Shown here: positions 37,131-37,667 of the stretch, in pieces | Layout: each line of letters opens with the position of its first letter | Position numbering within the stretch: the stretch's first letter is position 1 | Assembly: GCA_022703155.1 (NCBI GenBank) | Contig: JAKLEH010000001.1 | Coordinates: 16,482 to 80,481, forward strand | DNA length: 64,000 bases | Source of the DNA: Patescibacteria group bacterium | GTDB taxonomy: Bacteria > Patescibacteriota > Patescibacteriia > 2-12-FULL-60-25 | Reading direction: 5' to 3' | Translations under genes and position numbers: made by a program | Notes under the pieces: model-generated | What the model saw: only the letters and a program-made list of their open reading frames with translations | What the model was told of the DNA's origin: nothing | Database searches by the model: none

Positions 37131-37655
37131 TTCAATAAAAATGAATTTTGCCAAGAAGGATATAGAGGACAGTCCTGCGACACCCGAACACGGGCAATGC
37201 CGCGGATTGGAGGAGGAAGCATGGCGACCTGGTAATAACTGGGACGCCATGACAGTACAAATCCATGGATCGTCGGCGCTTCGGCCTCGACGCTCCGCGT
37301 TCCGACCTCGTGTCGGAACCCTCTAGATCCTTCCTGACAAATCAGTTCCGAGTGACGAGTTTCTAGTTTCGAGTCCGTCTCGAAACTCGCAACTCGAAAC
37401 TCGCAACTTCCAATGCCCCAACAGACGTGGAGGAGAGAGACCCTCTCCGAAGCACTTGGTGATGAACCGAGTAGCCTCGGGTGCGACGTCAAAAGTTTTG
37501 AAGCCTGGTCTTGCACTGGGCTCTCATAACGAGTAACCGTCGCGGATCGGGCGATTTCTCATCGCTTGATCCCCTCCGCATCCGTTGGGGTTTTGAATTA
37601 TCACGTCTTGCGCAAGGTGCGCAGTACGTTGTACCGGGCAACGTCCCGGGGTACC
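37131..37655 (+). ncRNA. ~0.5-kb highly structured untranslated RNA (long leader or independent ncRNA), unclassified
   Basis: There is no convincing ORF. The region has dense perfect hairpins: GTTCCGAC/GTCGGAAC (37299-37319), AGTTTCGAG/CTCGAAACT (37365-37387), GGAGAG/CTCTCC, CCGAG/CTCGG, GGATC-GCGAT...ATCGC-GATCC (37544-37572) and GTACCGGG/CCCGGGGTAC (37631-37654). It also has the tandem repeat CGAAACTCGCAACT x2. Confidence 0.4.
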
Positions 37656-37667
37656 ATGGAGTCGGTT

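Follow-up and report, generated by a model that had tools for sequence, protein, structure and literature searches.

What is encoded in half a kilobase of hairpin-dense DNA lying between a near-consensus promoter and an open reading frame (ORF) of 62 amino acids? The sequence in question, at 37131-37667 of the 64,000-nt stretch analyzed here (hereafter the window; contig JAKLEH010000001.1 of assembly GCA_022703155.1), belongs to a Patescibacteria group bacterium with a 1.23-Mb genome of 56% G+C, whose same-family relatives are deposited as 'Candidatus Uhrbacteria' metagenome-assembled genomes. An original prediction made from the letters alone had taken it for one large riboregulator or an independent noncoding RNA (ncRNA). 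We found that the region is conserved among homologues and carries abundant compensatory base-pair changes, as such an RNA should, but that it consists of two ~180-nt modules, D1 and D2, rather than one 0.5-kb RNA; a third copy, D3, lies farther downstream. The modules make up a genuine RNA family with a defined strand and deep covariation; it is absent from Rfam 15 and definable as a covariance model for annotation pipelines.

The predicted density of hairpins was borne out: the 537 nt fold with a minimum free energy (MFE) of -241 kcal/mol, against -178 +/- 6.6 kcal/mol for dinucleotide shuffles (z = -9.6). The reverse strand folds equally (z = -10.1), so folding energy alone sets no strand. 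On reading the sequence, all of the stems listed in the original prediction, and its tandem repeat, were found where they had been placed. Its view that the region holds no ORF also stands. No frame is open across the homologues, no coding frame is conserved, and most alignment indels (55 of 76 and 74 of 77) are not multiples of three; coding potential was rejected on these grounds.

Two covariance models, R1 built from D1 and R2 built from 55 family sequences (the E-values of both are rough), were used to locate the module. R2 scores at three places in the window, which identifies D1, D2, and D3 as paralogous copies of one module. Their parts are as follows.

37150..37340, plus strand: module D1, a four-way junction (R1 166 bits, R2 133.9 bits; structure from RNAalifold)
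37150-37168 with 37319-37338, plus strand: closing helix P1 of D1, with the inner clamp GAGG/CCUC
37173-37206, plus strand: helix P2 of D1, tip CCCGAACACGGG
~37212-37214 with 37262-37264, plus strand: helix P3 of D1
37220-37252, plus strand: helix P4 of D1, CCUGGU-AAUA-ACUGGG, with a G.U at a position invariant in 55/55 family sequences
~37267-37297, plus strand: helix P5 of D1, UUCG loop
37299-37319, plus strand: extra, lineage-specific hairpin of D1
37415..37593, plus strand: module D2, a diverged paralogue of D1 (R2 56.8 bits, E ~1e-15)
37417-37434 with 37573-37590, plus strand: helix P1 of D2, CCCCAACAGACGUGGAGG with CCUCCGCAUCCGUUGGGG
Within D2: inner hairpins GGAGAG/CUCUCC, CCGAG../..CUCGG, GCCUGGU-cuugc-ACUGGGC, and GGAUC/GCGAU...AUCGC/GAUCC
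38068..38233, plus strand: module D3, a more diverged copy (R1 33.6 bits, R2 34.9 bits, E 1.7e-9)

Several stems of the original prediction fall inside these modules. The stem GTTCCGAC (37299-37306) / GTCGGAAC (37312-37319) is present at the position of the lineage-specific hairpin of D1, and GGAGAG/CTCTCC (~37433-37449), CCGAG/CTCGG (37468-37481), and the nested GGATC+GCGAT stem (37544-37572) all belong to conserved D2.

The module is a four-way junction of 165-190 nt. Its closing helix, P1, has 16-20 bp; the outer pairs covary freely, and inner pairs 17-20 (G-C, A-U, G-C, G-C; GGAG/CUCC-type) are invariant in 54-55 of 55 sequences. Past these pairs, the 5' strand runs on as single-stranded AGGAA, giving a clamp of the form GGAGG(AGGAA):CCUC(U/C). 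Helix P2 is a two-part hairpin with the tip CCCGAACACGG across the Ca. Uhrbacteria family. P3 and P4 make up a long arm with an internal loop that sets GAAA opposite G/AGUA; this loop may hold a sarcin-ricin/loop-E-like motif (GAA opposite AGUA). At the tip of P4 (CCGGU-UUCG-ACUGG), a tandem G.U/G-C pair is invariant in all 55 sequences and the tetraloop varies (UUCG, GCAA, AAUA); P5 is a hairpin with, mostly, a UUCG loop. The single-sequence MFE structure of D1 is the same fold as the comparative structure. Together, the three modules amount to 0.54 kb of structured RNA in a 1.2-Mb genome.

Covariation carries this structure. With 12 genus sequences, RNAalifold gave 42 pairs in D1, 25 of them compensatory, and 30 pairs in D2, 15 of them compensatory. 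Among the 55 family sequences, 92.4% of cells are in standard pairs, compared with 68% after shuffling; both-sided changes occur in 36 of 42 pairs, and compensatory pairs rise to 43 of 50 when the short helix P3 is added. The covariation score was 0.63, compared with 0.19 for shuffled sequences and 0.06-0.09 for slid partners; the alignments behind these values were fitted to the model, which favors structure, and the slid-partner control speaks for a real signal. The strand follows from three observations taken together: the invariant G.U, other G.U-containing pairs, and the gap between R2 scores on the two strands of the window (133.9 vs. 22.7 bits) assign the RNA to the plus strand, in agreement with promoter orientation.

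How widely is the module held? BLASTN against 40 relatives returned a single-copy match in 13 genus genomes. Model R1 detected it in 20 of 22 genus genomes, 28 of 33 genera of Ca. Uhrbacteria, and 73 of 127 family genomes, often as two or three adjacent matches; D1 and D2 were present in all 19 genus relatives searched and D3-type matches in most. Searching a class sample with R2 found the module in 34 of 301 genomes, from at least 13 families besides Ca. Uhrbacteria, and in a phylum sample of 401 genomes, matches were confined to the same Patescibacteria class. Strict filters were used in the class and phylum searches; the genome counts are therefore lower bounds. One pattern scan of a viral contig collection with a 22-base module pattern gave 0 matches, and a phage origin was rejected on this result. 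The literature searched (Patescibacteria, Parcubacteria, and Uhrbacteria riboswitches, ncRNA, and structured RNA, and DUF7230) yielded no description of the module RNA, and no regulatory RNA of Patescibacteria was found described in it.

The setting of the modules bears on what they might do. rpoC and rpoB lie on the minus strand, with the rpoB start at 35710, and a short plus-strand island begins at ~36180. Around the modules, the island contains the following features; transcription start, 3' ends, processing, promoters, and terminators are all predictions.

37096..37124, plus strand: promoter P2, near-consensus sigma-70, with TTGACA at 37096, a 17-nt spacer, and TG-n-TATATT ending at 37124
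37343..37408, plus strand: D1-D2 spacer, formed by paired heptad arrays in inverted orientation (AGTTTCG... / CGAAACT CGCAACT x2), a dispersed repeat
37590..37597, plus strand: U-tract GGGGUUUUG directly after the D2 closing helix, flagged as terminator-like
37609..37654, plus strand: two local hairpins, UGCGC.../GCGCA and GUACCGGG.../CCCGGGGUAC, before the Shine-Dalgarno (SD) sequence; not conserved
37659-37662 and 37668-37856, plus strand: SD sequence GGAG and the 62-aa basic ORF, a conserved small protein
37869..37917, plus strand: predicted intrinsic terminator of the promoter P2 unit, a 20-bp interrupted hairpin with U7 at 37911-37917 (MFE -22.5 kcal/mol, z = -3.0)
38022..38050, plus strand: promoter P3, TTGACA, a 17-nt spacer, and TGcTAAGGT, read from the sequence

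The promoter that had been proposed ahead of the region was thus recovered: promoter P2 has 11 of 12 consensus matches with TG in the promoter scan, and it places the predicted transcription start at ~37131. Every genus locus read has a promoter of the form TTGACAAAA...TGnTATAnT upstream of the module, and so does another family (f15). Promoter P3 was not listed by the scan because of its weak -10 hexamer. The 62-aa ORF has an SD, no predicted promoter of its own, and a terminator 3' of it, and it is therefore probably cotranscribed with D1 and D2; most likely, as modeled from these elements, promoter P2 drives one ~0.78-kb transcript (37131 to ~37917) with both modules in its first 460 nt.

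A palindrome-like box, (G/A)GCTAAnnT(T/A)AGCC, occurs at 37062-37075 and at 36115-36130, and it stands 20-60 nt upstream of the module promoter's -35 here, in the genus, and in family f15. A role of this box, GCTAAAATAAGCC, as a genome-wide promoter element was ruled out, there being 4 boxes in the whole genome; the box is therefore specific to a few strongly promoted units. A second unit of like design occurs elsewhere in this genome (contig C54:12260-12770), with the box TTAGCTAAAATTAGCC, a strong promoter TTGACAAAA...TGATATATT, and a ~400-nt ORF-free leader followed by a zinc-ribbon-like ORF (MSNNTSVVV...CDKCG...); its leader gave no match to R2. rpoB has its own near-consensus promoter on the minus strand (TTGACA at 36050, AATAAT ending at 36022) and a ~310-nt leader (35711-36050), within which a terminator-like hairpin and U-tract (35882-35855, minus strand) form a possible attenuator. 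At the end of the island, a predicted small RNA running from promoter to terminator (40373-40562) matched neither R1 nor R2.

The sequences that link the modules are far less constant. Two further elements of the original prediction, the stem AGTTTCGAG (37365-37373) / CTCGAAACT (37379-37387) and the tandem CGAAACTCGCAACT x2 (37381-37408), are real as sequence but lie outside the conserved RNA, in the dispersed heptad repeat of the D1-D2 spacer. BLASTN found ~13 further copies of the spacer repeat in the same genome, and a regular-expression search found at least 23 arrays of the CGAAACT type, often as inverted pairs around a short spacer; heptad arrays also occur on contigs C2, C4, C9, C10, C28, C41, C48, C52, and others. 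Equivalent spacers in relatives hold other heptads (GTACGAA, CGTAATT, GTTTATAACG) or 450-900 nt of other sequence. The arrays could be DNA-binding sites or recombination-prone repeats. In five genus species (G018, G010, G012, G002, and G011), the spacer is 450-900 nt long, G+C-rich, and hairpin-dense, with shared pieces (GCCGGACCUCAGCGGAGGCAACCGGC hairpins, CUAAUGGCUUCGUGAUCGnAAGAUCGUGGAUCCAUCAAG, and GAUGGYYGGAGGACCAUC) that bring the RNA up to ~1.3 kb. These long spacers gave no Rfam match and may be a further RNA domain or an insertion.

Downstream of D2, the stems TGCGC/GCGCA and GTACCGGG/CCCGGGGTAC (37609-37654) exist as described in the original prediction, but the segment 37594-37670 folds at chance level (z = -0.6 vs. 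shuffles), and the closest relative, G004, and the other relatives read have a different sequence there. A U-rich tract directly after D2 is found in nearly all genus sequences read and after only 6 of 96 modules elsewhere; it may be a genus-specific weak terminator or attenuator.

Across families, a locus holds one to four modules, placed either in tandem (gaps of 1-30 nt) or one before each ORF. In the usual layout, a short A/C-rich linker separates the module from an SD, and the start codon lies 20-45 nt past P1; otherwise, the distance is 120-190 nt. The tandem gaps resemble the module-to-SD spacing. In the window, D3 sits behind promoter P3 and leads a 529-aa orphan gene (ATG at 38315) from 81 nt upstream, with a C/A-rich, unstructured linker of ~80 nt to the SD (-5.6 kcal/mol); a search for related loci with the 529-aa protein gave one irrelevant match. 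In family f15, the order is module, hairpin, intrinsic terminator, and SD with ORF, with no promoter predicted between. The downstream ORFs encode small basic proteins, small hydrophobic peptides, zinc-ribbon proteins, and orphans of 200-500 aa; 72 of them gave only six small similarity clusters, and 10 of the larger ones had no Pfam hit. The rpoB start is divergent and 0.4-1 kb upstream of the first module at 17 of 20 loci of the family (f1) and at loci of three other families. In the genus of G137, the module pair instead diverges from rpsO (ribosomal protein S15), at a distance of ~430 nt. The invariant tandem G.U/G-C pair in P4 resembles the S15 recognition motif, and, with the rpsO adjacency in G137, this may be coincidence; rpsO of the host genome lies on another contig (C8).

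The 62-aa ORF is, judged by its conservation, a real gene: in 10 genomes of the genus, a homologue is encoded next to the RNA, with the motif K[IV]RKxxPPxxxxH[KR]xKxKYxRKxKH and, in all ten, the invariant K..R....P....H..K..Y.RK.K; the protein is also found within the island in four other genera (five in all). It has 47 database homologues, all without a name. DUF7230 (Pfam PF23876) matches the ORF at 17.4 bits (E 0.005) against a gathering threshold of 27 bits and stays below threshold in seven of eight genus homologues (best E 1.7e-5); some of the database homologues carry a precomputed PF23876 hit. The protein is likely, from these profile matches, a distant relative of DUF7230 and not a demonstrated member.

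Could this small basic protein be the partner of the RNA? An obligate partnership was rejected, as the protein is missing from most module-bearing genomes. It occurs in 7 of the 301 class-sample genomes, five of these in families that yielded no module, and it is therefore a cargo gene rather than an obligate partner. In four genus genomes (G009, G020, G014, and G008), the homologue has no SD, and an extended -10 (TGnTAnAAT) lies 6-10 nt before its ATG, after the D2 U-tract, so that these mRNAs may be leaderless or nearly so. The arrangement differs in G018 and G002, where a long perfect hairpin is immediately adjacent to the small-ORF ATG. The motif IRKPLPPPGKTHRDKTKYNRKAKHK, from the C terminus of the small protein, recurs in a 51-aa ORF of a 10.5-Mb contig (L207), whose PSCyt1/PSD1 neighbors suggest a planctomycete; the peptide family would therefore reach beyond the candidate phyla radiation (CPR).

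How might the module act? Our preferred reading, which we hold with somewhat less than even confidence, is that the module works in cis as a leader switch built around an invariant GGAGG:CCUC clamp. In P1, the 3' strand (CCUCU/CCUCC) would be an anti-SD, and the 5' strand (GGAGG) an SD mimic that locks the 3' strand away. With the junction folded, the downstream ribosome-binding site, typically 15-35 nt farther on, would be free; a signal (metabolite, protein, or temperature) would remodel the fold, and the freed CCUC would pair with the real SD or, alternatively, could pair with the SD mimic of the next tandem module. In another family, remodeling may shift the balance at the intrinsic terminator. 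Because the clamp would recognize the universal SD, any cargo ORF would fit behind the module, which would explain the turnover of orphans. The same switch would explain the invariance within a helix, the independence of cargo, the short module-SD and module-module spacings, and the terminator layout of f15.

We examined this switch by constrained folding with the 5' strand of P1 blocked. The SD paired with the P1 3' strand in 8 of 20 leaders, a result that, as a folding model, weakly supports SD/anti-SD switching. As in riboswitches, a covarying element stands in the 5' untranslated region (UTR), with 36 of 42 pairs compensatory and UTR status assigned by promoter prediction; among the 72 downstream ORFs, no functionally coherent gene set of the kind expected of a riboswitch was found. 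Several observations weigh against a leader switch. The SD/P1-3'-strand pairing failed for both modules of the window whose SDs lie 74 and 81 nt away, no coherent regulon points to a ligand, and family f1 has no obvious expression platform. Each genome has its copies together in a single island, an arrangement uncommon among riboswitches, and tandem modules occur without an intervening ORF, as a stable ncRNA would show. In the genus, the U-tract after D2 and a small ORF with its own extended -10 and no SD fit a separate RNA gene. Still more tentatively, we propose that the module is a new class-specific sensory or effector RNA, either a riboswitch or a 6S-like binder of cellular machinery, that gates the rpoB-adjacent orphan island via the SD-mimic clamp.

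The strongest rival, a serious one although we rate it below the switch, is a free-standing, abundant ncRNA of 0.45-1.3 kb, or processed units of ~180 nt, acting in trans or as part of a ribonucleoprotein, for example by binding RNA polymerase or ribosomes. The downstream ORFs would then merely be colocated or cotranscribed, like ygfA with E. coli 6S RNA. Conservation of the RNA far exceeds that of every flanking ORF; the RNA occurs in tandem copies with no ORF between, and its near-consensus promoter is of the kind that one would look for in a highly expressed gene. The genus-wide U-tract after D2, the SD-less small ORFs with an extended -10 in the four genomes named above, the terminator after the module in f15, and the position divergent from rpoB, kept at 17 of 20 f1 loci and in three other families, all point the same way. 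So does the module's length of ~180 nt with a long closing stem, like the 6S rod, in a genome where neither 6S RNA nor signal recognition particle (SRP) RNA was detected. Against a free RNA, D3 and many other modules stand directly before ribosome-binding sites with no terminator, f15 leaves no room for a promoter between terminator and ORF, and genomes carry three to five diverged copies. The Rfam models themselves also speak against it: at E <= 10, those for 6S and SRP RNA gave no match, the GNRA/AGCA signature of SRP RNA is absent, and the tip loops vary.

These two RNAs were searched for directly. The 6S model RF00013 had no hit in the genome (E <= 1) or on the region (E <= 10), and the SRP models RF00169 and RF01854 had none in the whole genome or on the region. 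The module was rejected as an SRP RNA, since it has no helix-8 signature (GNRA tetraloop, AGCA/GGAA loops) and its tips vary between UUCG, GCAA, and AAUA, and as a 6S RNA, since it is a multicopy four-way junction and not a 6S-type rod with a bubble. That neither RNA was detected in a 98%-complete assembly means that they are either divergent or in assembly gaps.

Less probable again is a constitutive 5'-UTR expression cassette that senses nothing and serves for nuclease protection and/or as a standby site or enhancer (GGAGGAGGAA plus the A/C-rich linker), giving strong expression of acquired ORFs. Variable, unrelated cargo, strong promoters, unstructured A/C-rich linkers before the SD, and the lack of an evident expression platform in f1 would all suit such a cassette. 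A 170-nt junction in which the junction nucleotides and a G.U/G-C pair stay invariant over at least 14 families exceeds the usual needs of a stabilizer, however; tandem duplication is left unexplained, and the SD-like GGAGG is paired rather than exposed.

It is very improbable that the module is a known universal RNA in disguise, such as a divergent SRP or 6S RNA, a ribosomal-protein leader, or a CsrB-type sponge. The failure to detect SRP and 6S RNA in the genome, the several GGA motifs per module, the likeness of the tandem G.U/G-C pair to the S15 recognition motif, and the nearness of rpsO to the modules in G137 would be in keeping with this idea. The original prediction that the RNA belongs to no recognizable class was, however, upheld. 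Rfam 15 gave 0 matches over the whole window at gathering score; on 36900-38350 at E <= 10, it gave only chance hits of microRNA and small nucleolar RNA type, and on the loci of six relatives at E <= 1, it gave nothing relevant. Ribonuclease P RNA (core motifs GAGGAAAGTCC ... ACAAAATTCGGCTTA on contig C4) and transfer-messenger RNA (contig C10, by ARAGORN) are both encoded elsewhere in the genome. A tblastn search with E. coli and B. subtilis CsrA queries found nothing better than E = 3.5, and Hfq and Rho queries found no homologue. A CsrB/RsmZ-type sponge was thus rejected despite the GGA motifs, as was Rho-dependent attenuation via the C/A-rich linker. The module is also present in multiple copies before unrelated ORFs, and rpsO is on contig C8.

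The remaining candidate, a DNA-level recombination site or cassette boundary (attC-like) whose apparent RNA fold would be folded single-stranded DNA, draws on the [module-ORF]n layout with its highly variable cargo, but we give it next to no credence: both P4 and P5 conserve UUCG tetraloops, whose special stability is a property of RNA, the fold is a four-way junction instead of a bulged hairpin, with a strand-specific G.U and a promoter per unit in the RNA sense, its place by rpoB is fixed, and no recombinase gene was found among the neighboring genes examined.

Returning to the leader switch, gating by an SD-mimic clamp would, if true, amount to a plug-in control cassette under which episymbionts swap cargo genes, and a switch would add a new regulon, and perhaps a new ligand or signal, to CPR biology. 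If the module is instead a free RNA, it is a candidate for an unrecognized partner of the machinery of transcription or translation, in a lineage without detected 6S or SRP RNA. Patescibacteria make up a large share of bacterial diversity and are mostly uncultivated, with tiny genomes where noncoding DNA should be costly. Even so, the module is kept with deep covariation in at least 14 families, with the same invariant clamp, usually by rpoB, and before genes of fast turnover. Its four-way junction of ~170 nt may suit structure determination.

The module can be compared with several known systems. Like tandem riboswitches (e.g., the glycine riboswitch), it is a conserved multihelix junction in a 5' leader that occurs in tandem copies; like anti-SD/anti-anti-SD translational riboswitches and RNA thermometers, it has a strand, namely the 3' strand of P1, near the ribosome-binding site; and in one family (f15), as in riboswitches, an intrinsic terminator lies between element and ORF. 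It differs in having no coherent gene set, known ligand, covariation-supported expression platform, or Rfam riboswitch match, in the clustering of its copies in one island, and in its invariant inner P1, a helix that normally varies in riboswitches. Type III toxin-antitoxin loci (ToxIN) have a similar order of promoter, tandem structured RNA repeats, (terminator), and ORF, but their repeats are ~36 nt and identical rather than 170 nt and diverged, and they encode ToxN/AbiQ-type endoribonucleases rather than orphans. With 6S RNA, the module has in common a length of ~180 nt, a long closing stem, a strong promoter, possible cotranscription with an ORF, and adjacent RNA polymerase genes; its center, in contrast, is a four-way junction and not an open-promoter-like bubble, it is present in several diverged copies, and RF00013 does not match it. 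Set beside the raiA motif RNA (ModT), OLE, ROOL, GOLLD, and HEARO, the module is distinguished by its size of ~170 nt, its one to four copies per locus before variable ORFs, its confinement to one Patescibacteria class, and the lack of an Rfam 15 match. It resembles them in being large, ornate, covarying, lineage-confined, and found by comparative genomics with no function assigned. Of these RNAs, the raiA motif was initially interpreted as a leader and later came to be described as an independent ncRNA (PMC11706538).

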